Source: Sporopachydermia quercuum (lineage: Eukaryota). Taken from it: DNA of 64,000 nucleotides. The DNA is taken from contig BCGN01000007.1 of assembly GCA_001599295.1 (NCBI GenBank), positions 136,433 to 200,432 of the forward strand. The letters are read 5' to 3'. Below, piece after piece: positions 17,842 to 42,833 of the stretch (position 1 is its first letter; every line of letters starts with the position of its first letter). A program made the position numbers and the translations under genes. The notes beneath the pieces were generated by a model, which saw nothing but the letters and a program-made list of their open reading frames with translations, did no database searches and was not told the origin of the DNA.

Positions 17842-18545
17842 TTAATGGTCGGGGTTTATTGAAACAAATTGAATTCCTTCTTTTTCACGCTCGTCTCGTT
17901 TTGCTTTCTCTGCTGTATTGTTAGTAGTATTCACTGAAAAGCTGTAGGTATCTTTCTACCATGCGTAATTAATAGAATATTCAAAAGTTTCAACTTACGT
18001 ATCTCTCTCATATAACCTTCTCTAGGAAGGTCAATTGGATTAAGAACTCTAGATGAAGTTCCATATCCATTAAAGCTACAGTAGTCTAGAGAATACATCT
18101 TCCTTAGACCTAGAATTACTTCTGCATCCTCTAATGCACCTGAATTGATCAAAGTCTCATTGTAATGCTTTCCTTCTTGTTTCAATGATAAAAATGAGAT
18201 CAGCTTTTCATTTGTCAGCCCAGAAATACGTTTCACAGTGTTTGTATAATCTGGAAGGGAAGGCGTTGGCACCGGCAACGTGAGGCTTTTGAATGTGATC
18301 TCTGGTTTTGATTCTACTGATGATGGGTCAATTGTTGAGGACGTCTTAGTATTATCACTACTTGTTTCTTGGTCCACCTTGATTTCACTGGAGATGAGGG
18401 TTTCAGTATTCACTTTTAAACCGTCAGCTGCTGAATTATTTTCTTTATCAACAGCTGCATTTTCAGTCTTGTTTATATGATCATTTTCCCTGTCTTTATC
18501 ACTATCGCTCTCACTGTTACTGTCATAACCAACTAGTCCACTCAT
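17842..18545 (-). CDS. HCNGP/SAP30BP-like protein; exon 1 18545-17999, exon 2 17909 (or 17912)-17842
   Basis: N-terminal GLVGYDS..SD, core FLSLKQEGKHYNETLINS...YGTS. A minus-strand intron (GTAAGT at 17998, TACTAAC at 17926-17920, CAGCAG acceptor) restores the charged tail YMREIQKAKRDEREKEGIQFVSINPDH*. Confidence 0.7.
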
Positions 18546-19195
18546 TCTCAGTATCAGTCACTTCTCAAAACTTCGTACTATAAAGGAAAAGAAGCATTTT
18601 ATGTTCAAAAATGAACTCTTCTCAGAAATCCCACTTTAAAATCAAAATTATCTATACAAATAAATAGAATGAGATAGAATTTTGGAAGCAATGATATCCT
18701 ATTCCTTTGCTATATTAAGTAGTTATGGTGATGTGACTACGGATGGAGTAAGAATTGGTCACATGATATACAATATACTAATTCAGGGAAGCTTGAGTTG
18801 AACATTAATGAATCGTTCTTAGAACTAATATATAGCGAAGAAAAGATCCACTAAAAAAGCCATTATATATACAAATCTACAAATAATAAATCTACAGATA
18901 ATAATTCTCAGTAATATATCAAATTGTATATTAGTTAGTTCGTAACAATATGTTGAAACAACAATGCAAGACATAGCGGAACAAGTGTGATGGGAAAGGG
19001 TATTGAATTTTGTGTATAATGGAATCATTAAACAGGAAAAGGATGTAGGAGAATGATGTGAATATATGAAATACAAGACGCAATAAAAAACATAAAAAGA
19101 AAGATGGAGATGAATATCATAAAATTTTTTCTTTCAGAAAGTGCAATTGAACAGGGGAAAAGAATAGTGAAGGTAATTGAATAGCCATCTTAATC

Positions 19196-20245
19196 TTAAC
19201 GCAAGAAATTCTGTATACCATCCATAGAGAAACTCTTAAGTTTCCGTTCTTTCAGTAACTTAATTTGTTTCGATGATAATGCATTTAAGCTTCTTGAATG
19301 GGGAATTGATTTAGTTCTGACTGATTGGTCAATGATTGCTGACTTGGTAGTAGTTGCACCAGACTTCAATTTATTCTGTAGATATTTTCTTGGTGGAGTA
19401 ACAAATGATGGTAAAGAAAACTCTTCATTAGAGTTCTTCACAGTTGAAATAATATTGTTGAAAATATTCAATCGGGAGTTGAAAGTGTTTTCTAGTTTCA
19501 TAAAGGTGTGTAGTTGAATTGGTTCTCTTATAGGAGCTGATGTGATGGTATTATTAGTGTTGTTTGTATTATTATTATGGGATGAATTATCAGGTATGGT
19601 AATAAATCCTTTATAATCTTCAATGCTAAGGTCAGTCAATGGCTGATGTAGGTGAGGTGTGGGCGATCCTGCTGATACTTTGATGACATCTCCAGTACCA
19701 GGTTCAATGTTCTCCTTGATATCAGTAGTATCTGTGTTTACAGGGGTGAATAATGTTTCATTTCCATTATCAGATGCAATTTTAAGAGTATCCTGAAACA
19801 CATTGAACTTCAATTTGGGTTTTGCTCTTTGGATTCTTGCTTTCCATTTAGATGATGACTTGTTACTATTAGAACTTACGAATGGCGATCCAATACTAGC
19901 AGTAAACATTGAATCTTCCGTATTTGCTTTAGGTGTACCAGGGGCCAAATCCTTATTAGAATCTGCTCTTTTCATTGAGAATTTGAGAAGTCTCGCTGGT
20001 GATGAAATCTTTCCCCCTTCAGGACNAGGAGAGTTATTAGCAGAGTTAGAATCCAAGTGCTGGAGTGGGATTCTTGAAGGAGAGTGACTAGGGGAAGATT
20101 TTGTAGGAGACTTGCCCGTTTTTCCGGGGGAATCCAGCATTACTTTCAGTTTCAGTGATTCATTTTTATTTAGTTTTTTCAGTGGTGATTGTTTCTTGGG
20201 CGATTGGCTTGAAGACCGTTTCATTGTTTGAGAACCTCGTTCCAT
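19196..20245 (-). CDS. ACM1: APC/C-Cdh1 pseudosubstrate inhibitor
   Basis: First ATG at 20245. Ordered motifs as in Acm1: FNVFQD (A-motif-like), KEN, PLTDLSIEDYKGFI, LPSFVTPPRK; many SP/TP CDK sites. Confidence 0.8.
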   Translation of the reverse strand: MERGSQTMKRSSSQSPKKQSPLKKLNKNESLKLKVMLDSPGKTGKSPTKSSPSHSPSRIPLQHLDSNSANNSPXPEGGKISSPARLLKFSMKRADSNKDLAPGTPKANTEDSMFTASIGSPFVSSNSNKSSSKWKARIQRAKPKLKFNVFQDTLKIASDNGNETLFTPVNTDTTDIKENIEPGTGDVIKVSAGSPTPHLHQPLTDLSIEDYKGFITIPDNSSHNNNTNNTNNTITSAPIREPIQLHTFMKLENTFNSRLNIFNNIISTVKNSNEEFSLPSFVTPPRKYLQNKLKSGATTTKSAIIDQSVRTKSIPHSRSLNALSSKQIKLLKERKLKSFSMDGIQNFLR

Positions 20246-21557
20246 TGTAACACTTGAATTGGAATCGCTAGATCTCTCAAAATACAATAAAATGTTCAGT
20301 TAATAGTTCTCAACGATAGTTTCTGATTTTCAATGACTCAAATGTTCTCGTTCTTGTTGATACTATGATTAGTGGTTCTATAGTCTTCAGTAGATCATAG
20401 AATCAAGCACAAGCAGTCTATCTATTATAGCGATCGGCTTGTGGTTTTTCTCTCGATTCTACAGTTGCAAATTTGGTTCAGATATCAATTCACTTTCTAA
20501 ATCAATTCTAACTATTTTCAACCACTTCCTTTTAGTTTGAATCGTTGCTGGTAAGGAAAAGTAGACATCTATTCATCTTTGTGTAGGAAAGAAATCTCCC
20601 TACTTTAAAAGCTATAGGAAAGGCCTCTCTCTATTACACTGCGCGTTGTGTACGTGACTGAATTAACGTTTACATGTAGAAGATCTATATTTTGAACTTT
20701 AATTAAACTCAAAGCTATTATTGAAATAAATATATCACGAATTACCCCCTTCATTCAAAGGAGGTACTACGCAAATAGACTAAGAATCTTCTTGAAAGAA
20801 GCAGAAAGCAAGGCGTTTGTTTCTTATTTGAGCTTGATAAGAAACAGTAGGCTATCTAAAACCCTTTTCGAGATTTTCAGCTAAGGTCAAATCACTGGTA
20901 TGCAATTTGGTAATTCCTAAGGATTCACTCAATTCTACTCTCTATCTCATGTGACCCTTCATTCTTGCCATATCAGAAAATTGACTTACTGAGTTGGAAT
21001 TTTGACCTTCGCGTCTCCTCCCACTTACTTAGCTGGCAAGAAGTGAAAATTTTCAAATAAAGTTTCGAGGTAGGAATAAATTCCATTAAGCGGATAAGAG
21101 AAAGCAATGAATAGAAAGAAGAGAATAGAACAATCAAAGGGCATTTATTTCGATATTAGCTATGGAAGTTTGTTGATAATTTTGTTTAGAAGCTTTCAGC
21201 AAAAAAGTCAGCAATCCAGATAAAGTCTCATCTATGTTGAATGCTACCTGTTTTGTTGATAAATATTGCAAATGTGACTGGCAAGAAGCTTGACTGTAAA
21301 TAGAAAATGGACAAACCAATGAACAGTTGAACTACTCATCTAGAATTTTAGGAATACAGCCAAATTTTAAAGAGTATATTAGTCAATAAGAATATTTCAG
21401 GATTTAACTGTTTCTATTCAAAAACAAAATACATTGTGCCAACTGGTTAAAATAACAAATACTCAGTAGTATTAAAACTATATACAATGTAAATCAGAAG
21501 ACCATTGTCAATACTAATATCCAAGTAATCTAATACCTAAAATAGTAAGAAACATGT

Positions 21558-22784
21558 TTAATATTTCTTGGTAATCAATTCAGGATAGTTTTCACAGACG
21601 TAATCAATATCCTTATCACCTCTACCACTTAAGTTNATAAGAACCTTAGAACCCTTAAACTTATCAGCGTTGAAGATAGCATAGGCAACAGCATGCGATG
21701 ATTCTAAGGCAGGGATTATACCTTCATACTTACTCAACATAAAGAAAGCATCAACAGTCTCTTTATCAGTAGCACCAACGTTGGTTTCGGTACGACCAAC
21801 ATCTCTCCAGAAAGCATGCTCAGGTCCGATTGATGGATAATCTAAACCGGAAGCAATAGAGTGAACGGGAGCAGGTTCTCCGTTTTCATCCTTAAGCATA
21901 ACGGAATTGAAACCATGCATAATACCTTCGGAACCAACTGCTAAAGAAGCAGCATGATCACCAAGCTTCTCAATGCCTTTTCCTAATGGTTCAACACCGT
22001 AAAGCTTGACATTTTCATCATCAACGAAACCAGAAAAAATACCAGCAGCGTTAGAACCACCACCACAACAGGCAATAACATGATCAGGTAAAGAACCAGT
22101 AGCTTCCAAGAATTGTTCGCGAGCTTCAATTCCGACCACTGATTGGAAGTTTCTAACCATCTTTGGGAAAGGATGTGGTCCAACTGCTGAACCAATACAG
22201 TACATAGTTGAAACAGGATCCTTCATATACTCTTGGAAAGCTAAATCAACAGCTTCTTTCAAAGTCCTCAAACCAAAAGTAGCGGGAATGACTCTGGCAC
22301 CAAGAATTTCCATTCTCAAAACATTGGGGTGTTCCTTTGCCATATCAACTTCTCCCATATAAATATCACATTCAAGACCAAAGAATGCTGCAGCGGTTGC
22401 CAGTGCTACACCATGTTGTCCAGCGCCAGTTTCAGCAAGAATCTTCTTCTTACCGAGCTTTTTTGCTAACAATGCTTCAGCCATACAATGATTAAGCTTA
22501 TGAGCTCCCATGTGATTAAGATCCTCTCTTTTCAAGTAAAGATCAAATCCGAGCTTTTCACTCAATCTCTTGCAGTATGAGATCGGAGTTGGTCTGCCCT
22601 GGAAATTTTTACGGATATCCCTTAATTCTTTCAAATATTCAGGATCTTTCCATAATTTTTCGTACTCAGCAGCAATCAAATCCATCTCCTGTTGAATTTG
22701 AGGTGGAACAAATGATCCTCCATATTTACCAAAGTATCCCTTTTCATCGGGGTAGTTCTCCAAGTATGGCTTTTCGAAAGACAT
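21558..22784 (-). CDS. trpB: Stand-alone tryptophan synthase beta chain (TrpB, bacterial type), 408 aa
   Basis: First ATG at 22784 with an in-frame stop shortly upstream, so no alpha domain. Motifs [28 protein letters not shown] (PLP Lys), [44 protein letters not shown] and NLSGRGDKD. Confidence 0.95.
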
Positions 22785-23535
22785 GGTTAAAATAAACAAT
22801 CTTATACGTTAGTGATAGTTGTTTGACGTAGAACTCAACAACTGAGATAGTTAATAAGTTTCACCTGTGCTCCAAGCTTTTGAATACAAGTCAATTTTTT
22901 GTATTCAATGAGCTAATGATTCTGTGGGGTTTTCAGGCTCCTTCGTGCTGCCATTTGTTTTTCTCTCTTTTCCTCTTTTCTTCTTGGACAATTCACTCAT
23001 ACCTCTCCCTCGGACGAGGCCAAACAATTCTCCACTTCACCCTGTTATCAGACGAAATCTAACTTTTACTGAATGAAGAAGGTTCAATTTTCGCTGTAGT
23101 CTTTCCATTTTGATGATAAGATTAGAATACTAAAATGCTAAACAGGGAGATAAGAGACATTTGCTGTCCTCCCTAGTAAGTTTAGTTTACATCTAACTTA
23201 AAGTTTTAATGAACTCTAAAACCAACTTTAACCTTAAAATGCTTTCTTTCGTTGCTATAAGGTTCTCGTTCATCAAAGAATTATTGATCACATAATATTC
23301 TCTAAATTACGATTACATCATCTCTTTGTATGCAATTGATGCTTTCCGAAACATATTACTTAGATGTTTTCTCTTCTTCTTCTGTCTACTGGTACAGAGA
23401 AAGTGCAATAAAAGGCTTGTGAATGGTACATCTAGTTTNTTATTTGATATTTTCACTGTCTGAATTACCTGATTTATGCTGAACAAAAAATTGACTCCGC
23501 TGGCTGAATTTTAACCAGGTTTAATCCATTCTAGA

Positions 23536-24783
23536 ATGGCCGAATCCAATAGACGCTCAACGTCAAGCCTTGTGGGGTCAACGCCGAGATCGTCATTGGA
23601 ACGGCATTCGGAACGGCGATCAGAGTCCGAGGAACCATTACCGAGATCTGCGCCCTCTCCAGTTTCTAATGATACGTTTTATGAAGCTACAATGAAACTA
23701 GTCAGTTCGGCTCTAGCTTCTGTTAAGTATATCCTGCCGAAACTCATCCGGGCTTACTTATACATAGCAATTGGCTTATCAACGTTCGGCATATTACTTT
23801 TTTGGGCTGTTATATCCTATTTGTATATATACAATCGGTATATTCCTACAAATGTGACATCTTATCCATTGGAATTTGATTATTGGTCTCCAGGAATGTT
23901 TGGAAGAAGTTGGAATGAAGGATCAGCCTTTGACCGACACAACGTGATCGGAGTTCAACCGGTCAGTAAAGAGCCCTTTTTCGGTTCCAAATCCCAAACA
24001 GGGAATCAAAAACCTAAGTGTGGTTTTATTACCACTTCTAACTTAATTTCTGACTCGGATGCGCAGCTCAATCCCGCTTTTCTCCATTTACCCTCTGCTT
24101 CAATTCCAATCACCTTGCCTCTGAACGTAGCATATGATGTGCATCTACAACTTGAAATCCCATGCGATCAAGCGGAAACTGTTGCAACAATTCAAGCAAC
24201 TTTTCCCGAATGCTCTTATCCTATTCGAAAACTTATTTTTATTAGCGACCAATGTGAAACCAAATTTAAGCTACTGAAAGCGTTCTTCTACTGGTTTTTA
24301 TATTTAATCCGAGACCGAGTGTCTCCGGGATACAGTGAAGTAAGGTTAATCCAAGGATGGAAAGTTCCTTCCGCATGTGCCAAATCAGGTAATTCCGCCA
24401 GTTTAGGTTCCGATCCAGCAGCCCCATCAGGATGTATAATTAAGTTTTTGCTCGATAGGGATATTAAACTACTCTCAGGATCCAGAGTGGTGTTCATTGC
24501 TAAACTGAAAAGCCTGAGGTATTTAATGTATTATTATAGAATTCCGTCTTTTATAATTGGCGTCTTTGGTTTCTTTGTTGTTGAGTTGCTTGTATGTGGG
24601 ATTGTTGTTACTGTCGTTGTTTTCAATGGCAAGGGAAATAGGAATAATGGTATTAGGGATAGGGAAGGCAGTAGTAATAGCAATGATAGTATCAAAGGTA
24701 ATAATGATAGGCATGGTGATGGTCATAATAGCAGTAATAATAATAGTAATAATGATAATAATAGTAACGACAATTATGGCTGA
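23536..24783 (+). CDS. Seipin (lipid-droplet biogenesis protein, Sei1/Fld1 family)
   Basis: Two hydrophobic segments flanking a lumenal domain; Y..YIP and YDVHLQLEIP after TM1; LRYLMYYYRIPSFIIGV before TM2; Asn-rich tail. Confidence 0.75.
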   Translation: MAESNRRSTSSLVGSTPRSSLERHSERRSESEEPLPRSAPSPVSNDTFYEATMKLVSSALASVKYILPKLIRAYLYIAIGLSTFGILLFWAVISYLYIYNRYIPTNVTSYPLEFDYWSPGMFGRSWNEGSAFDRHNVIGVQPVSKEPFFGSKSQTGNQKPKCGFITTSNLISDSDAQLNPAFLHLPSASIPITLPLNVAYDVHLQLEIPCDQAETVATIQATFPECSYPIRKLIFISDQCETKFKLLKAFFYWFLYLIRDRVSPGYSEVRLIQGWKVPSACAKSGNSASLGSDPAAPSGCIIKFLLDRDIKLLSGSRVVFIAKLKSLRYLMYYYRIPSFIIGVFGFFVVELLVCGIVVTVVVFNGKGNRNNGIRDREGSSNSNDSIKGNNDRHGDGHNSSNNNSNNDNNSNDNYG

Positions 24784-24894
24784 TGATGAAAATGAATTTG
24801 ATAGTGGAAATTTAAATTGAGCTCTAGAACCGTTTTTAGAGTGCGTTTAATTTAGTATTCTTCTTCATAGTTGCTGGTAGTTTATGTATGTGCA

Positions 24895-24924
24895 ATTGAT
24901 TGTAATTGATTGTAATTGATTGAT
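24895..24924 (+). repeat. Short tandem repeat (AATTGATTGT), about 3 copies
   Basis: aattgattgt aattgattgt aattgattga read directly. Confidence 0.7.
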
Positions 24925-25521
24925 GTATCTTCTAGCACTTCCAGAAGATGAGAAATGAATGATGGAAAGGATGACAATGTAAATAGTTGCAAATTGGGAT
25001 CTAAATATGGACGTAAACTTCTAGTACTACTGCACTAAATTCTACGGTAAGTGCATTATATTGAGTGAGCAAAAAAAAAGAGTGTTCTATATGCCCTCAC
25101 TGAATTCATTTGCAATGAATCGAATAAAAAACTATATAACGATTGGCAATTCGTGATTCAATACGAATATTACATTACCTAATTGTTCCTCCTATTGTTC
25201 TTACTGTTGTTAATTTAACTATGGATATTCATTCTCTGGTGTGAATGGTGCCAGCTCTTCTGTCGATCATTACAATGTTCTCATTACTTGATTATATTTG
25301 CTCATTTCACTCAAGTCATCCAATTAATTCAATTAATTCTGTTCTATTTGACAGAGCAGATGCTAATAGCAAAGTAGCAGATATAAAATAAGCATTTCCA
25401 AGTACTTGAACCATCGGCATGCCCGACAAATGTCGCTCTTCTATCATACTATTATTTTCAGGCAACAAATCTTCCCAAAACCTATTGCCAATATTTATCA
25501 TCAATCTTCAATGACCAAAGG

Positions 25522-28500
25522 TCAAGAAGGGAAAACTCTTCCTGGATACTCCGGAATCATTCTTGGTAAAAGAATATGATGCAAATAGCAATTACTCCTA
25601 TTTCCAGGATCCCCGGAATTTCCTGAATTGTTCTTACTACCGCAATTATGCTTCTCCTCGTTATTAATAAACTCTTCAAACTCACTGACGGTACATGTCC
25701 ATTCGGCTAGCGATCTAAGAAAATACACGTTCAGTTTGCTGTTCAATTCATTCGCAGTGTTTCTGTCTATTGTCGAGGTAATTTCCATTCCAGATGTGAA
25801 TGGCAGTCGTATGATTGACATACTATGGGTATCAGATAAATGAGATGCCGATTTACTATGGTGATGACTATGAGGAATGATGTTGCTATTATGGCACTGA
25901 TTAATAGACTGTCCANTGTGTTTCCTGATAGTATTATTACTAAACTCTTTGGTTGAATTGATAGGAGAAGAGTTGTTTTCACCTGTTGAGTCTCTAACCG
26001 GAAATCTCTTAGTCCTATCTTCATTAATAGCACTGAAATGTGACTCGCCATCAATATTGTCAAGAGGATAAACTAAAGGATCGAAAGCGTGTTTGGTGCT
26101 GAACGTAGTATTGATATCAAACCCATCGTCAAGTTGGTTCATTTCGTTGATTATTTCACTTAAGAGGTTATCTCCTTTAGAATATATTGAGTCGTTGATA
26201 GTATTAGTAGGAGTATCATTAGCATCAAGACCATAAGCATGTTTCAGAATAGCCCCATCAGAAATTACCCTCCTATTAAAACCAGGATTAATTCTGTTAC
26301 CAACACTACCATTACCCATACTATGATTACCATTATCAGCAATCAATGGTGGTCCAATATTATTCCTCTTATCATAGGAATTGATATCACGGTTAGAACC
26401 ATTATTTTTGGAGTTGATTTCAGTACTATCTCCAATACTATCAATTCTATCACATTTCAACAGATTAGCGATTTGTTTTTCTGCTTGGAATGCAAATCTC
26501 AAAGCTGGTCTGGGAACTTCAGGAATTCGTTGTTTCAGTTCAATTGGAATAATAGTTTTGCCGTCATGTCCATAATCATTAGTACTAGCACTATTTATGC
26601 TAACTGTAGATGTAGATGTATAAGTCAGCGAGCTAACGTTTGAATGACAACGAGCATTGCTTGAACTAGGACTATTAAATATTGAAGAGTTCCGACTAAG
26701 AAGAGCATTGTTATCAGTACAGGACATTGCACGACTGATTCTATTCAGTTTCAAGATACTTTTCCTATGGTCAGGTGTATTTCTGGAAACAAGAGGACTG
26801 TTACCAATATTCTCATAGGGACCAGCAGTAGAGCCACTGCTAGAAACACCGGAGAACCTGTCAGAGTTTGCTAATTCTAGAGCTAGTTCATCCGGGCTCT
26901 TATTACTATTATTANCAGGGTCAATGATGTTAAATCTATTGGTGGCTTTACTGGCATCAGTAGTATAGTGACTTGCAGCATCAAACCAAAGTTCATCTTC
27001 ATCTTCAGTAGCACTGTTAGTGTTACTATCAGTAGTGATGTTTCTATTGCTATTCCCATTGTAGTTTCCAGATTCTTCAGCTTTTATTGCATCAACACTT
27101 TTATCTCCTGCTTCCTTTTCAAGGTTCTTCTCATTATTAGCAAAAGGCTTGAATATGTTCAGCTTCTTACTAAACAATGAGCTGAACGATGACATTAACC
27201 CAGAGTTGAGCTTTTCATGACTGCCTCTATTACTCCGGATGCTTTTATTGCTGTTTCTCTCAAAAAGAAAGTTCCTTTCATTAATATGAACAGTCTCTTT
27301 ACTTTTGTCATTAATACCAATTGAATACACACCATCATACACTCCAGATAACTGATTGGCTTCAGTACTATGATTTGACTCTCCTAACTGCATATATATA
27401 TTATCATCAAAAACATCATAAAAGTATATTTTATGAGAAAACTGAATCATGTTTCCTTTCATTCGCCTTNTAGAAGATAAATCAATCTGATTACCATGTT
27501 CCTCATTCTCTGAAATAGTATAATTGAATTTTCGAGAGCCCAGTCCCATATTGGGTGCTTCCTTCATAATCAGGTACCCAATTGGCGTTGTGATTAAGGT
27601 TTGGCCGTTAAGGTTCATATTCCTATTTGAGATATGAGCTTCATTATTCACTAACTCAATTGTCTGACTCAACCTTATTTCAACTTCTCCTCGTATTCTT
27701 TCATTATATTTTGCGTATAATGGAGGAATGATCAATCGATGGCTTTTGTGACTAAACTCATGCAGATTCTCGGTTCCTATTCCACCACCTGTTGATGTGA
27801 TTTTCCAGCAAACAAGTCGCAAATAATAGGATCTAATTGTTGGTTGCCAGTGGCCGAAAAATCGGTTCCAATTGGTCGGAGAAAGTAACCATTGGGTGAA
27901 CTTAAACCTTCTTGCGTAAAAGTCAATTTCCCAATTAGGAACCAGTTGTTCTGTTCCGCTAATAATACTAATCAGAGCTTCTTCGGTTAATGGGATATAT
28001 TCCCATAGATTATATAGGAATGATAACACCTGGCATTCTAATTGAAAGCTCTCGGTACGTAAAACCATTTTACAGATTCTTTCCCAGAAATCCCAATCTA
28101 TGTTTAAGCTAGAAAGAGAGTTATTGATCACCGGAGTTCGGATATATGTGCCAAACTGGTTAGCCGCTCTTTTTCTACCGGGTAGGTCTAAGATGTCAAA
28201 TGCCAAACCATCGGATGCACCGAAGTTATCGTAAGAGTTGCCCATTGCATTTAATGTACTTTTTGATGTTTCCAAGCTTGCAGGCAGCATTAAATTAAGC
28301 AGCATTTCTTCGCTTACTTGCAGATACATAGAAGCTAGGTCAATATTCTGTACTGAAACTTGTTTACCGACTGCATGCAAAAGAATTTCAAACTGACGAG
28401 CACATGCTAGAGATAGCAATTGTGAGGACGGATGAAGGATAGAATTAAGGTTGGAGCCAATTGAGTTCAAATCTAGCCCGCAAGAAAAANCGCTATTTTC

Positions 28501-31413
28501 AGAATAGTTAGAATCATATTCTAAATAGGAAGAGTTCCGGATATTACTATTTCTGGTATCGATTTCCGCTTTCTCCCGAGCCAAACTGTTACCAGTTCTG
28601 TTACTCTGGTGATCGTGTCCGAATTCAGCCGCACAATACCCAGGTTTGACAACAGTAGCATCCGACCGTTCAGATCCATCAGGATTTCCGTTTCCATCCA
28701 CTACACTTCCACTAAAGGCTCTAAAATTAATAGTCTCTGGTTCAAATTGAGTAACAAACTCCGGTTTCAAGATCTCATAATTACTTCTGTATAGAATCTC
28801 TCTTATAGAAGCAAATAATTTATGCGACTTGATCTGATTCAATCGTTTATTCTGGTTAGAAACGTTTCTAGGAGTAAAATCCAACGATACGTTGAATTCA
28901 CTGAACTGTTGTGAATGGCCGAAGTTGCTATTATTGATGGTTTTACTGTCATTAAGTGTTGTGCTTGAGAAATTCTTACTAAGCCTGTTGTTATTGTAGT
29001 TATTGTTGTTGTTACTATTGTAGCTTTCAATAGGTCTTCTTGGCGATCCAGTAGAAGTAGAAGCAGTAGTAGTGTTATTACTATTAGAAGGAGGTATTCT
29101 AATATTTGATCCTGTCTTAAATCTCCTTAGCTTATTACTGTTGCTATTGGCATCACCAGCTCCATTTCCAATCGCCATTGGAGTTTCAGTATTGAAACAA
29201 CATAATCCATTCAACAGTTTGATCAAATGTGCCTGTATGACTAATAACCCAGGGGCTAATGTATGCAAGTTGAAAGGAATACCACTGTGCGCAATTTCCC
29301 AATTGCTGTACCTAGTATTGCCATTATCTCTGTTGAATACTTTAGAAATAATAGTATAATAGTGAGTTAAAAATGCATAGAAAATGTTGGAATTAGACTT
29401 TGTCCATAGTTCCTTCCATTGAGAATTTAATTCTAAAGCGGAAGTTGAACCAATATTAAAGTTTGAGTTCGTAGAACGAGATAGGGAATCACCGGGGAAA
29501 TTTGCCCCGTTTGAATTCGGTGTGTTCCTGTTTACAGTAGCGAAGAACGCAAAATGATGCTGCCAAGACCGGATAGATGGCGGAAGCAAAACGTTGTTCC
29601 GTTTCAAGGGTCGTTTCTTCCGAGCTTTACGTTTGTTCTCTTGATAATAAAGTATGGGAAATGCGGTGAAATATGCCACCTGGGAAGGAAACTGACATCT
29701 AACTTTCGGTATGAATTCTTTGGCATTTTCAATTGTCGGGTTGACTGGATTAAGGTTTGAGTTCTCGGGGAAGTTTCCTGTTTTGGAGTAAGGCTCTTTG
29801 ATTCCGTTGTTCCCGCTGTTATCATTGTTTCCGGATTCACTCTTTCTTCTTGCAATTAACTCAATCACATTGCCATCTTTTTCGTTCTTCCCACACCCAT
29901 TAAACGTCTCCTCAATCACCTTGTTAACCAGATCCCAGCTCACATTTAGCGAGTACAGTAAAACATGTGCCATCCCCGGAATATGGAAAAACCCATACGC
30001 AAACAGTTTCCCTGTAAATGCCGAAATTGATATCGGTATGGTTTTCCGTTCAAGCTTAGGGATAATATACTCAACTGTCCTTATCAACAGCTGCTCATAC
30101 TCTCTATATTCTGTTTCCGTATACTGGGCATATCTACTAGGTTCATAGGGCCAAGTGATATACCATTCATCGCGAGAGAGTATACAGGAGATTACTTCTA
30201 AGTATGCCGAACGGTCAGTGTTGGTCACAGCTTGAGGTTTGATAAGCAATTCAAGCATCAAGTTCCACCATTTGGTGAATATTGACAATTTCTTGGTAGA
30301 AAACAATAGGAACTCGTCAAAAGGTATCGCGGAGTTACCCCCATCGATGATGTCGATATATCCATTGTTGGCCCTTAGAAACGGTAGTAAATGCAGCCTT
30401 AAAATGTTGCTTCTTGACGCGTTTGATTTGCTGCTGAATTTATGCAATTCTGTGTCTATTCGTTTGATTTCTGATAGTATTTTACTTAAAGTGGGGTGTT
30501 TAATTTTAGTAGTTGTCCGGCTGCCATTGATATTGTTGTTGCTGCTACTGCGGATGCTGCGGCTTTTGTTGAATAGGCTTGTAGATGACTTAGATTTGGA
30601 TCTCAACAGCTTGTTCTGTTGAGTATTTCCACGATGGGGACTTTCCTGAGGCACCGAGGGTAAAGGTTTTCTCTGCGGATGATGTGCGGATGATGCTGAT
30701 GCCGATGAGAATGATGATGATGAGTGTGATGCTAGTGACGAAGCCAAGGTCTGTTTGAACNCTGATGAGCTCAGAGTTGATGGCTGAGGCTGCGATGGAG
30801 GTTTCGGAATTGAGTTTGTTGGAGAAGACGATGAGACCGAAGATACAGAAGAGGAGGTGGACGCGGATGTGGAACGGGAAGCTGATCTTGACCAGAAAGG
30901 AGCGTTCGGGGCGGGTAACCCGAGATTCCGAATACTACGTTTGCCCAGGGAAGAACTAGAAGACGACACCGAGCTTTGTCGTAACGAATCTCGGCTCAAG
31001 ACCGGTAAAGGTTTCGGAAGATTGGGGATATCATGTCTGGGTTTATTTGAAGTTCCGAGCTCGGTTGGTGGCTGAAAAGTCCCAAAGTCGAAATCGGGAG
31101 AAGAGGGATCGGAGGATACATCTGATCCGATGTCCAATGAGGCAATACCATATCCGAAAAAAGGCTTGTTGCTAGTTAGGGTTTGCGGATCGGAACGTGA
31201 GTTTGAGCTTGAGCTTAACTCTATTCTCAATTCAGATGATCTTGTGTTTGTCCCCGGTTCAAATTTGTACAGTGAATTTGTGTAACCGGAGTCCATTTCT
31301 TCCGATAATCCAATTTCTGGCTCGGATGTATAGATCGAATTCGGGTAATTTGGATGGGGAAATATCCTTTCAGGCGGGACAATCGGCTCGGAGGTTGGAA
31401 TATTCATTCCCAT
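25522..31413 (-). CDS. DUF1765-family protein (Ahk1/YDL073W-like), 1963 aa with large Asn/Ser-rich insertions
   Basis: Blocks RSNILRLHLLPFLR, KWWNLML, TDRSAYLEVIS.ILSR.EW, FTGKLFAYGFFHIPG, DWDFW, FFGHWQPTIRSYYLRLVCWKI and RSLAEW..V.EFE.F. Confidence 0.75.
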   Translation of the reverse strand: MGMNIPTSEPIVPPERIFPHPNYPNSIYTSEPEIGLSEEMDSGYTNSLYKFEPGTNTRSSELRIELSSSSNSRSDPQTLTSNKPFFGYGIASLDIGSDVSSDPSSPDFDFGTFQPPTELGTSNKPRHDIPNLPKPLPVLSRDSLRQSSVSSSSSSLGKRSIRNLGLPAPNAPFWSRSASRSTSASTSSSVSSVSSSSPTNSIPKPPSQPQPSTLSSSXFKQTLASSLASHSSSSFSSASASSAHHPQRKPLPSVPQESPHRGNTQQNKLLRSKSKSSTSLFNKSRSIRSSSNNNINGSRTTTKIKHPTLSKILSEIKRIDTELHKFSSKSNASRSNILRLHLLPFLRANNGYIDIIDGGNSAIPFDEFLLFSTKKLSIFTKWWNLMLELLIKPQAVTNTDRSAYLEVISCILSRDEWYITWPYEPSRYAQYTETEYREYEQLLIRTVEYIIPKLERKTIPISISAFTGKLFAYGFFHIPGMAHVLLYSLNVSWDLVNKVIEETFNGCGKNEKDGNVIELIARRKSESGNNDNSGNNGIKEPYSKTGNFPENSNLNPVNPTIENAKEFIPKVRCQFPSQVAYFTAFPILYYQENKRKARKKRPLKRNNVLLPPSIRSWQHHFAFFATVNRNTPNSNGANFPGDSLSRSTNSNFNIGSTSALELNSQWKELWTKSNSNIFYAFLTHYYTIISKVFNRDNGNTRYSNWEIAHSGIPFNLHTLAPGLLVIQAHLIKLLNGLCCFNTETPMAIGNGAGDANSNSNKLRRFKTGSNIRIPPSNSNNTTTASTSTGSPRRPIESYNSNNNNNYNNNRLSKNFSSTTLNDSKTINNSNFGHSQQFSEFNVSLDFTPRNVSNQNKRLNQIKSHKLFASIREILYRSNYEILKPEFVTQFEPETINFRAFSGSVVDGNGNPDGSERSDATVVKPGYCAAEFGHDHQSNRTGNSLAREKAEIDTRNSNIRNSSYLEYDSNYSENSXFSCGLDLNSIGSNLNSILHPSSQLLSLACARQFEILLHAVGKQVSVQNIDLASMYLQVSEEMLLNLMLPASLETSKSTLNAMGNSYDNFGASDGLAFDILDLPGRKRAANQFGTYIRTPVINNSLSSLNIDWDFWERICKMVLRTESFQLECQVLSFLYNLWEYIPLTEEALISIISGTEQLVPNWEIDFYARRFKFTQWLLSPTNWNRFFGHWQPTIRSYYLRLVCWKITSTGGGIGTENLHEFSHKSHRLIIPPLYAKYNERIRGEVEIRLSQTIELVNNEAHISNRNMNLNGQTLITTPIGYLIMKEAPNMGLGSRKFNYTISENEEHGNQIDLSSXRRMKGNMIQFSHKIYFYDVFDDNIYMQLGESNHSTEANQLSGVYDGVYSIGINDKSKETVHINERNFLFERNSNKSIRSNRGSHEKLNSGLMSSFSSLFSKKLNIFKPFANNEKNLEKEAGDKSVDAIKAEESGNYNGNSNRNITTDSNTNSATEDEDELWFDAASHYTTDASKATNRFNIIDPXNNSNKSPDELALELANSDRFSGVSSSGSTAGPYENIGNSPLVSRNTPDHRKSILKLNRISRAMSCTDNNALLSRNSSIFNSPSSSNARCHSNVSSLTYTSTSTVSINSASTNDYGHDGKTIIPIELKQRIPEVPRPALRFAFQAEKQIANLLKCDRIDSIGDSTEINSKNNGSNRDINSYDKRNNIGPPLIADNGNHSMGNGSVGNRINPGFNRRVISDGAILKHAYGLDANDTPTNTINDSIYSKGDNLLSEIINEMNQLDDGFDINTTFSTKHAFDPLVYPLDNIDGESHFSAINEDRTKRFPVRDSTGENNSSPINSTKEFSNNTIRKHXGQSINQCHNSNIIPHSHHHSKSASHLSDTHSMSIIRLPFTSGMEITSTIDRNTANELNSKLNVYFLRSLAEWTCTVSEFEEFINNEEKHNCGSKNNSGNSGDPGNRSNCYLHHILLPRMIPEYPGRVFPS

Positions 31414-41252: not shown

Positions 41253-42833
41253 ATGACTTCTACAATACAAGAATCAAAGAATTATTTCGATTCGCGCGTG
41301 GCCATTACTGATAGCATCTCTGATACTGACGGACTCGCGACTGTCAATGAATCTACCAATACATTTGATACTGAAAACACGGATGATAGCATCACCAACA
41401 CTTATGATTTAAGTGTGCCGTTAACACCACCGACGGAACCAATCGATCCCCAATATGTTTATGCTATTTATGATTTCCTAGCAACAGATCCTTCCCATAT
41501 CACTATACATAAAAATGATGCTCTACAACTATTAAACGATGAGAATTCTTATTGGTGGTTAGTGAAAGCTGCCGATAAAGATGAAGTTGGATTNGTTCCT
41601 GCTGAAACACTTGAAATATACCCTGAGAGATTGGCAAGACTGAATAAATTCAAGAATGAAGAAATAGAGAGGTTAGGTGATATAGGACTAGGTATCGTTG
41701 GTATTGAGAATAATAATAATGATAGTAATGGAACGAGCGTTGGTTATTTTGATGTCGAAGCAAGAAATTGTGATTCAATTGGTATTAGAAATTTAGATGG
41801 GAGCATCAGTAAAAAAAGCGTCTGTACAATTAGTAGTAGCAACGTGGATTTGCCTATCGATGGTGGCAGTATCAACAATGGCAATGATCATATAATGCCA
41901 TTGAATATAGGCAAGAAAAGTGAAGGAGATAAATCAGTATCTTTCTCCACAATAACTTATGTTGATGATATGCTGAAACCAGCAATAGAATTGCCCTTGA
42001 ACTCTCCAAGCTGTTCGCCTGAGCCTGTAAGTGTGGCTGAGTTTGAATCAATGGCGCAACTTATAAATAACGCGGAAAAAGAAATCAATTGGAATGCAAC
42101 TGAGGAGCAGACTGAGGAGGAGGTTGAAATAGTCCAAGAGGAAGATACAGTGGCGCAACCAGTAGAAAAAGAGATTCNNACTAAGAGTAACTCCGTGCAA
42201 CGCCCTATTGGGCCCCTGTCATCAAGTCATCGAACAGAACCACAATCAGGGCATTCAAANCAAAGTAACCAACCCAAACAGCTTACTGGCTTGCCCAAAT
42301 CATCACCAGCAACTACAAGTACTATTCTCAATTCACCAGAAGCTGCTGTTTCGCCATCTTCTCCTGCATCACCAATATCACCATTTTCGCCTGCTCCTTC
42401 TTCATTGTCCTCGATATCATTAACGCCTATTGACCCCTTGATGTCACCATCAACAACTCTGGTTTCTTCCAAATTCCAGGAATTGGAACAATCAATGCAG
42501 GATATCCTATTACCAATAGAAGAAGAAACGCCTGATGATGATATTTCTAGAAATGGCGAATCAGGCTCTCCCAGTTCATCAAGAAGTTACAAGTCTTCGC
42601 CAAAGCCTCCATCATTACCTTTACAGTCACGTTCCAAACAGTCAACAGGAAATTCCTTTTTGTCTCCATCTCGTCAACAAGAGCAGCAAAACATCAGAGA
42701 AGGTACATATAATGGGCTATCCCTACAGTCACTCACCAGAATACTTAATCCTGAAATAAACACAATTTATCAACCATCATTTAAAAAGCTACAGAATCTC
42801 AAAGAACGATTAGATGCAATTCTAAACAGTTGA
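41253..42833 (+). CDS. BUD14: SH3-domain PP1 (Glc7) regulatory subunit, Bud14/Tea4 family
   Basis: SH3 domain YAIYDF...LLNDENSYWWLVK...G.VPAE followed by the family-typical ERLARLNK..N, then a KSVSF RVxF-type PP1 docking motif. Confidence 0.75.
   Translation: MTSTIQESKNYFDSRVAITDSISDTDGLATVNESTNTFDTENTDDSITNTYDLSVPLTPPTEPIDPQYVYAIYDFLATDPSHITIHKNDALQLLNDENSYWWLVKAADKDEVGXVPAETLEIYPERLARLNKFKNEEIERLGDIGLGIVGIENNNNDSNGTSVGYFDVEARNCDSIGIRNLDGSISKKSVCTISSSNVDLPIDGGSINNGNDHIMPLNIGKKSEGDKSVSFSTITYVDDMLKPAIELPLNSPSCSPEPVSVAEFESMAQLINNAEKEINWNATEEQTEEEVEIVQEEDTVAQPVEKEIXTKSNSVQRPIGPLSSSHRTEPQSGHSXQSNQPKQLTGLPKSSPATTSTILNSPEAAVSPSSPASPISPFSPAPSSLSSISLTPIDPLMSPSTTLVSSKFQELEQSMQDILLPIEEETPDDDISRNGESGSPSSSRSYKSSPKPPSLPLQSRSKQSTGNSFLSPSRQQEQQNIREGTYNGLSLQSLTRILNPEINTIYQPSFKKLQNLKERLDAILNS

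Follow-up and report, generated by a model that had tools for sequence, protein, structure and literature searches.

A stand-alone TrpB of bacterial type in the yeast Sporopachydermia quercuum, a candidate indole-salvage enzyme

The lone beta-chain gene and its product

The subject of this report is a gene for a free-standing beta chain of tryptophan synthase (TrpB) in a 64,000-nucleotide stretch of DNA from the yeast Sporopachydermia quercuum (GenBank assembly GCA_001599295.1, contig BCGN01000007.1, positions 136,433 to 200,432 of the forward strand), hereafter, the window. The gene occupies positions 21558..22784 on the minus strand and is an intact, intronless coding sequence of 408 codons plus a stop, which, on the evidence of its open reading frame (ORF), its matches to PF00291 and TIGR00263, and a structure model, encodes a stand-alone beta chain of the TrpB1 type, from a subfamily that we refer to as ‘orphan’. 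Fungi are taught to make tryptophan only via the fused enzyme Trp5, and indole is a common bacterial signal as well as a toxin. An earlier annotation made from the letters of the window alone (below, the sequence-only reading) had proposed here a bacterial-type TrpB domesticated by the yeast, possibly for indole salvage. The limits and the length of the ORF given there proved exact, with no intron needed, and the motifs quoted there, HKLN, AETGAGQHG, GGGSN, and NLSGRGDKD, were each found in the translation and mapped on Escherichia coli TrpB.

The product matches TIGR00263, the NCBIfam equivalog model of trpB, over model positions 1-383 of 385 with 499.6 bits, compared to a cut-off of 392.45 (E = 5.9e-150), so that a chance match is not an issue, and Pfam recognizes in the same ORF the PALP domain of fold type II (PF00291, 1.1e-39, 137 bits). 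The protein is 47% identical to E. coli TrpB, and all 22 catalytic and cofactor positions mapped by alignment are the same in both (in E. coli numbering, H82, H86, K87, N89, E109-H115, N145, G232-N236, G281, D305, E350, S377-R379, and D381). These include K96 (E. coli K87; codon at 22497..22499), the lysine that forms the Schiff base with pyridoxal 5'-phosphate (PLP), inside HKLNHCM; the catalytic glutamate E118 (E109; 22431..22433), inside AETGAGQHG; the GGGSN loop, residues 241-245 (232-236; 22050..22064, with the codons GGT GGT GGT TCT AAC), which binds the PLP phosphate; and D315 (D305; 21840..21842), the aspartate characteristic of TrpB1, inside SGLDYPS, all located by alignment and encoded on the minus strand, as is NLSGRGDKD, residues 384-392 (21609..21635), in the region of E. 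coli S377-D381. The roles of K87, E109, D305, 232-236, and the other motif residues are those known from the Salmonella and E. coli literature. Next to the last of these motifs, the third position of codon 383 is an ambiguous base (N at 21636), so that ATN stands for Ile or Met where the aligned relatives have V or I.

An AlphaFold2 model built from a 70-sequence alignment (predicted local distance difference test, pLDDT, 95.2; predicted template modeling score, pTM, 0.93), which was used instead of a poor first model from seven sequences (pLDDT 56), matches solved TrpB structures in Foldseek with template modeling (TM) scores of 0.91-0.97 for Pyrococcus furiosus, Thermotoga maritima, and the reconstructed enzyme of the last bacterial common ancestor (LBCA), or 0.89-0.97 when Mycobacterium tuberculosis is included, and with a root-mean-square deviation of 1.0-1.4 Å from P. 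furiosus TrpB. We also considered TrpB2, the classical ‘second’ TrpB, likewise a lone beta chain proposed for indole salvage. However, this is a different family: the yeast protein scores 164.7 bits against the cut-off of 518.85 for TIGR01415 and 161.7 against 366 for PRK12391, and D315 is the aspartate of TrpB1, so the TrpB2 identity was rejected.

In composition, the gene is indistinguishable in range from its surroundings. Its GC content (0.403) and GC content at third codon positions (GC3, 0.311) fall within the spans of the 16 other genes in the window (0.343-0.438 and 0.206-0.368, respectively), and it favours the same codons as they do, more strongly (GGT, GCT, AGA, GTT, ACT, AAG). The sequence-only reading had described the gene as ameliorated and its codons as yeast-preferred, and both descriptions stand, along with the A that it noted at position -3 of the ATG (TTAACCATGT), a yeast-style start context. 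The only CTG codon of the gene (L128, 22401-22403) specifies a Leu conserved in 8/8 aligned rows of the subfamily, a hint, from one codon only, that CUG is read as Leu in the host yeast. Upstream of the gene, a divergent intergenic region of 751 bp (22785..23535 in the ORF map) separates it from a seipin gene and is presumed to hold the TrpB promoter.

The orphan subfamily in fungi and bacteria

Among the best 120 matches from a search of 5.8 billion proteins, the closest fungal lone TrpBs are those of Kuraishia capsulata (73% identity), Komagataella phaffii, Tortispora caseinolytica, and Dipodascopsis tothii (71% each), with Basidiobolus (69-70%), Ascoidea rubescens (68%), and Morchella (67%) close behind, and the bacterial matches, from Arcobacteraceae, Sulfuricurvum, Ereboglobus, and Clostridia, are at 67-71%. 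Nine named fungal proteins are present in this set, and one further relative is found among the best 120 matches of a profile search. The lone ‘tryptophan synthase’ annotated in Kuraishia, Komagataella, Ascoidea, Tortispora, Dipodascopsis, and Morchella is an orthologue of the same length, 67-73% identical to the protein in the window, and the yeast orthologues sit on contigs of 0.57-3.3 Mb. Apart from the formal top match, no protein among the matches listed exceeds 73% identity. That top match, P0002, a metagenomic protein of 561 amino acids (784 bits), was rejected as a closer relative because a tandem duplication of its first ~190 residues inflates the score. Longer, fused forms are more distant, at no more than 54% identity. 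Two long gene models from Fusarium, P0122 of F. beomiforme (871 amino acids) and P0180 of F. graminum (1382 amino acids, with a PF04082 fungal transcription factor domain), fall on the same side of the TrpB split at 52-54% identity and may be merged models or cluster-associated genes.

In a library clustered at 50% identity, the representative of the cluster to which the yeast protein belongs scores 665 bits and that of the next cluster 446, a gap that indicates a discrete subfamily. We delimited this ‘orphan/auxiliary’ TrpB1 subfamily in the present analysis, and it is not a named family. It is set apart from canonical TrpB by 28 signature positions, that is, positions with a conservation of 90% or more among 47 subfamily rows that no more than 10% of 21 canonical rows share; among the signature residues are HKLNHCM.E, K150/E151, Y186, and HGFNS, and the yeast protein carries 27 of the 28. 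Membership of the yeast protein in the subfamily thus rests on a fully supported split in the tree (100/100, below), on the signature, on the shared 50% cluster, and on the lack of trpA in the window, where a search with a hidden Markov model (HMM) found no TrpA-like ORF and where there is no second TrpB, in agreement with the earlier claim that no alpha subunit is present in frame or elsewhere in the window. The TrpA model recovered TrpA in 5/5 control loci. The resemblance to orphan bacterial TrpB copies, which the sequence-only reading pointed out, is real as well, in that the yeast protein lies inside a bacterial radiation of trpA-unlinked TrpBs.

This placement comes from a careful, unrooted tree of 53 rows and 405 columns, computed under LG+C20+F+G4 with posterior mean site frequencies (PMSF); compared to a quick 60-row tree, it omits seven outgroup rows, five of them very long, along with eight bacterial rows, and it adds named loci. 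On one side of a split with 100/100 support stand the 38 rows of the subfamily, and on the other 15 rows of canonical TrpB, Trp5, diatom, and plant sequences. Six yeasts, namely, the host yeast, Kuraishia, Komagataella, Ascoidea, Tortispora, and Dipodascopsis, form one clade (100/96), of which Morchella together with P0390 is the sister group (99/86), nested among bacterial rows. Inside the yeast clade, Tortispora and Dipodascopsis stand apart from a group with the topology (window gene, (Kuraishia, (Komagataella, Ascoidea))), and this deep split agrees with the species tree. Branch lengths in the clade (0.18-0.38) resemble those of the bacteria and give no sign of acceleration. Neocallimastix (the P0242 cluster) and Fusarium beomiforme diverge basally within the subfamily, on long branches that the tree does not resolve. 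The direction of transfer is read from the nesting of the fungi among bacteria in the unrooted tree, and the acquisition can be called old, as the sequence-only reading had it, because the clade is common to five other yeasts and Morchella. Nested among prokaryotic sequences, patchily distributed in fungi, and integrated in host DNA, the gene shows the hallmarks of a prokaryote-to-fungus xenologue, and its sequence fits an old bacterial transfer that would by now be fully adapted in GC content and codon use.

The bacterial side of the subfamily is large. Species-representative prokaryote genomes yield at least 592 confirmed relatives spanning Campylobacterota, Clostridia, Verrucomicrobia, and others, of which we took the best 80 loci (64-70% identity): 11 from Campylobacterota, one from Endozoicomonadaceae, and 68 from Clostridia and other Firmicutes, mostly gut metagenome-assembled genomes (MAGs). 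As to ALPHA-INDEPENDENCE in bacteria, trpA lies within ±3 kb in 0/80 loci. Elsewhere in the host genomes, TrpA scores over the Pfam cut-off in 15 of the 80 (12/50 plus 3/30), comprising all 11 Campylobacterota and 4 of the 68 Firmicutes; the other 65 lack a TrpA over the cut-off, and there are two further genomes with sub-threshold matches only. In the two Clostridia genomes that we examined as single contigs (2.4 and 2.0 Mb), the orphan type is the only TrpB. Three Campylobacterota genomes (G001, G004, and G005; Marinarcus, Helicobacter mesocricetorum, and Sulfuricurvum, respectively) encode two TrpB1 proteins each, a canonical one (L084-L086; 542-631 bits with TIGR00263) and an orphan one sited elsewhere (L089-L091; 527-534 bits), and in the Helicobacter genome, the canonical gene adjoins trpA.

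Regulation provides another clue to the function of the bacterial genes. A T-box leader (RF00230, above the Rfam gathering score) is located upstream, on the same strand, in 14 of 40 Clostridia loci (4/20 plus 10/20) and in 0 of 12 non-Firmicutes loci. In all 14 T-boxes, the specifier position is UGG, the tryptophan codon (by the motif in all 14 and by cmscan alignments in four), where the specifier was assigned according to the general T-box architecture. Induction by uncharged tRNA-Trp in genomes without TrpA implies that the orphan TrpB could hardly be anything but a producer of tryptophan from imported indole, and these sequence features mark the bacterial enzyme as a putative tryptophan-starvation-induced indole-salvage enzyme. 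In three Clostridia loci, a gene for the S-component of an energy-coupling factor (ECF) transporter (PF07155, 1.7e-34 to 3.5e-37) is directly upstream of the orphan trpB on the + strand (L042:2431-2928, L043:2401-2928, L030:2356-2880), and in L042 and L043, it lies between the Trp-specifier T-box and trpB; its product may serve to take up tryptophan or indole under the same control as the salvage enzyme.

Predicted function, origin, and the alternatives

The scenario that we propose starts from an alpha-independent beta enzyme of the ‘orphan/auxiliary’ TrpB1 branch that bacteria would use alone. An ancestor of the budding yeasts, or of the yeasts and morels, would have acquired the gene from a bacterium, and selection would have maintained it in a small number of lineages, the host yeast included, as its composition turned host-like. 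The product is expected to be cytosolic because its N-terminus, collinear with the bacterial N-termini in the alignment, carries no extension, and it would presumably be a beta2 dimer with PLP held by K96. L-serine would be dehydrated to the amino-acrylate, to which free indole, coming from the environment or from bacterial neighbours, would add with the assistance of E118 and D315, to give L-tryptophan, with no TrpA, indole channel, or alpha-beta allostery involved. Judging from the sequence, the yeast protein probably does condense free indole and serine to tryptophan on its own. The physiological role would be indole salvage or detoxification beside the normal Trp5 pathway; salvage in the yeast is indirectly backed by the bacterial relatives, most of which lack TrpA in their genomes and among which Trp-specifier T-boxes occur. 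The activity, substrate, and role, as well as the timing and number of the transfers, are what we infer from these comparisons.

The comparison to well-studied enzymes brings out both what is retained and what is different. With TrpB of the E. coli and Salmonella alpha2beta2 complex, the yeast protein shares the TIGR00263 family, the fold, and the catalytic and PLP-binding residues, and the same reaction is expected of it, but it is located on the opposite side of the fully supported split. Furthermore, unlike a subunit of that complex, it has no TrpA partner in the window, the relatives are unlinked to trpA at 80/80 bacterial loci, and the interface is changed: of the E. coli residues that serve in the COMM (communication) domain or at the alpha-beta interface, R141 is replaced by K, N171 by D, and S178 by M, L, or V across the subfamily, and R175 is variable, as expected of an enzyme that never meets TrpA. 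The best sequence match in the PDB is LBCA TrpB (5ey5, 456 bits), which, like the TrpB of Pelodictyon luteolum (plTrpB) and the engineered P. furiosus and T. maritima enzymes, works without TrpA, as would be expected of the yeast TrpB. These enzymes, however, originate in systems that include a TrpA partner or were developed from such systems, unlike the yeast TrpB. A known counterpart of the event itself is the gut fungus Neocallimastix, with a bacterial lone TrpB in a fungal host on the same side of the main split; but the Neocallimastix protein (P0242 cluster) is only 54% identical to the yeast one, is 593 amino acids long with an N-terminal extension, and forms a long, separate branch outside the ascomycete clade.

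A broader proposal can be advanced only tentatively, and we rate it at somewhat less than an even chance. The subfamily might represent an undescribed, naturally TrpA-independent TrpB1 branch that scavenges indole on tryptophan starvation in gut Clostridia devoid of TrpA and persists in Campylobacterota as an additional copy, and that jumped into fungi several times (into ascomycete yeasts and morels, Basidiobolus, Neocallimastix, and, perhaps, Fusarium), was retained since near the base of the budding yeasts, and lets some yeasts feed on, or defuse, bacterial indole.

Several observations weigh against the main scenario or against parts of it. The literature searched contains no enzyme assay of any member of the subfamily, and there is no solved structure of one among the PDB sequence matches. 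The six ‘Res6’ residues, described in a recent study as conferring stand-alone activity on LBCA TrpB and plTrpB (Kinateder et al. 2025, PMC11917138, which also mentions the characteristic catalytic Asp of TrpB1), are present in the yeast protein only by half, as E49, T66, and S199, with R55, F292, and N293 absent according to a hand mapping. A scan of the 751-bp upstream region for Gcn4/TGACTC, TATA, and Aro80-like motifs revealed no convincing Gcn4 site: the single TGACTC, at 23492, lies 44 bp from the seipin start codon and ~700 bp away from that of the TrpB gene, so that no amino-acid-control signal can be claimed for the TrpB gene. Depending on TRP5, the yeast TrpB could also provide the principal beta activity instead of supplementing it. 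On the bacterial side, MAG incompleteness raises the ‘no TrpA’ counts somewhat, although it cannot plausibly account for 64 TrpA-less genomes of 68 in Firmicutes. On the fungal side, the distribution seen among the best 120 matches is a lower bound, and the tree contains two complications. Komagataella pairs with Ascoidea, not with Kuraishia (99/87), contrary to the species tree, and therefore, transfer between yeasts is possible. The Basidiobolus proteins (P0017 and P0019) group with those of the verrucomicrobium Ereboglobus luteus (P0102) and P0117 (100/98), apart from the other fungi, and being 79-81% identical to the Ereboglobus protein and 63-72% to those of other fungi, look like a separate, more recent bacterial acquisition. 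However, the approximately unbiased (AU) test does not reject a single clade of ascomycetes and Basidiobolus (delta lnL 12.7, p 0.261), and either one transfer or several may lie behind the fungal genes.

Of the alternatives, the one that we take most seriously, while considering it unlikely, accepts the gene and its bacterial origin but assigns the protein another job, either a different PLP-dependent beta-replacement or elimination reaction (with another nucleophile, with O-phosphoserine as the donor as in TrpB2, serine deamination, or supply of tryptophan analogues) or replacement of the beta function of Trp5 in place of indole salvage. TrpBs are promiscuous, and the closest structures include T. 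maritima and P. furiosus TrpBs engineered to produce tyrosine or beta-branched analogues; the 28 subfamily-specific positions differ from canonical TrpB; the gene has no Gcn4 site nearby; and the long or fused Fusarium models P0122 and P0180 (the latter with PF04082) hint at other fungal uses. Conversely, every mapped residue of the indole and serine chemistry is kept, including the equivalents of E109 and D305, the product in Clostridia with T-boxes is indicated to be tryptophan by the UGG specifier in 14/14 cases, and the bacteria-like branch lengths of the yeast genes betray no burst of change. Appreciably less probable, in our estimate, is an old paralogue of fungi or eukaryotes, passed on vertically with many losses, which bacteria either acquired from eukaryotes or share by descent. 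The occurrence of the gene in deep yeast orders, a pezizomycete, Basidiobolus, and, more distantly, Neocallimastix and Fusarium would be compatible with such a history, as would the unrooted trees and the AU result on the joint clade with Basidiobolus. Yet the fungal rows are nested within a larger and more diverse bacterial set of at least 592 stretches, only nine named fungal proteins and one additional relative appear among the best matches drawn from 5.8 billion proteins, Basidiobolus is far closer to Ereboglobus than to other fungi, and in Clostridia, the gene is integrated into bacterial-style T-box regulation.

We assign next to no probability to an origin by fission or partial duplication of the host Trp5, with the alpha half lost. 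The beta half of the fungal fusion (Trp5, or TRP-3) is indeed homologous and shares the fungal host, and the ORF covers exactly a beta chain, starting at its N-terminus and devoid of a TrpA domain. Nevertheless, the yeast protein is 48% identical to the beta domain of Ophidiomyces Trp5, compared to 67-73% for lone fungal and bacterial TrpBs, the Trp5 rows are across the 100/100 split, and a tree constrained to unite the eight ascomycete rows with the two Trp5 rows is worse by 149 lnL units and is rejected by the AU test (p-AU 1.5e-71), within the limits of a Trp5 sampling that consists of two sequences, both from Pezizomycotina. Thus, the sequence-only reading was justified in holding the protein to be distinct from the Trp5 type, and the grouping inside the fungal Trp5 beta clade that it had named as its own refutation did not occur. 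Equally hard to credit is bacterial contamination or a chimeric assembly, which might be suspected given that the nearest non-fungal relatives are bacterial and that 66 Ns are scattered across the window. Against it stand the yeast genes on both sides in the 64 kb (encoding, among others, a PIR protein, a sugar transporter, seipin, an importin, a proteasomal ATPase, and a PP2C), the host-like GC, GC3, and codons, the yeast-style ATG context, and the chromosomal genes of other yeasts, on their large contigs, as the closest relatives. In addition, single 27-kb Logan contigs from three DNA runs (two samples and two studies of one organism) span positions 18500-25500 with 0 differences and so bridge the gene and its yeast neighbours; these contigs are perhaps the source data of the assembly, and hence demonstrate contiguity rather than provide independent confirmation. 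Contamination and chimerism were rejected on these grounds.

What remains most plausible, in support of the sequence-only reading, is a transferred, lone bacterial TrpB, and transfer of a metabolic gene into fungi is an ordinary kind of event. This kind of event is, moreover, known, given that the yeast orthologues are already present in public annotations and that a preprint lists TrpB among the genes transferred into Neocallimastigomycota, which are anaerobic gut fungi (Murphy et al., bioRxiv 10.1101/487215). A full-text literature search turned up no publication that deals with a TrpB of the lone or bacterial kind in budding yeasts, although supplements may list the gene, such as table S9 of the Kuraishia genome paper, the only place where its 13 genes of bacterial origin are listed. 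Neither did we find a description of the orphan subfamily in searches that included T-box, trpB, indole, and auxotroph topics. The more consequential aspect is metabolic. That deep yeast lineages have preserved a bacterial-type beta chain intact suggests an ability of some yeasts to convert free indole to tryptophan and points to cross-feeding between yeasts and bacteria, conceivably, an unexamined metabolic link through indole. If so, the behaviour of tryptophan auxotrophy markers, as well as indole and fluoro-indole selections, would be affected in Komagataella and its relatives. The bacterial side, with its lone gene, TrpA-less genomes, and Trp T-box, amounts to a natural experiment in alpha-independent TrpB, which is of interest for the engineering of stand-alone TrpBs and, if the proposed activity is real, could supply natural scaffolds for biocatalysis.

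Flanking genes and other features of the window

The TrpB gene is embedded in an ordinary yeast chromosome. The genes in the window encode, among others, a PIR cell-wall protein, a sugar transporter, a BTB protein, seipin, a giant DUF1765 protein, TauD, importin-beta, a proteasomal AAA ATPase, PP2C, and Pmp3. On the right side, the flanking host gene is a seipin homologue at 23536..24783 on the + strand (PF06775, 2.5e-14), as the sequence-only reading had recognized. On the left side, the flanking host ORF is located at 19196..20245 on the minus strand and encodes a low-complexity protein of 349 amino acids; the label ACM1 that it had been given is unverified, with no match in Pfam and, for an X-free piece of the protein, one weak ‘hypothetical protein’ cluster in the Atlas. 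The 66 ambiguous bases are isolated single Ns, approximately one per kb, in genes and spacers alike (for example, at 304, 1551, 20026, 21636, and 23439, with one adjacent pair at 42178-42179); one is in the TrpB gene and several are in neighbouring ORFs, and they resemble ambiguity codes that were masked, or heterozygous positions, rather than gaps. Beyond the seipin gene, positions 25522-31413 on the minus strand encode a low-complexity protein of 1963 amino acids in which DUF1765 (1.2e-22) is the sole recognized part.

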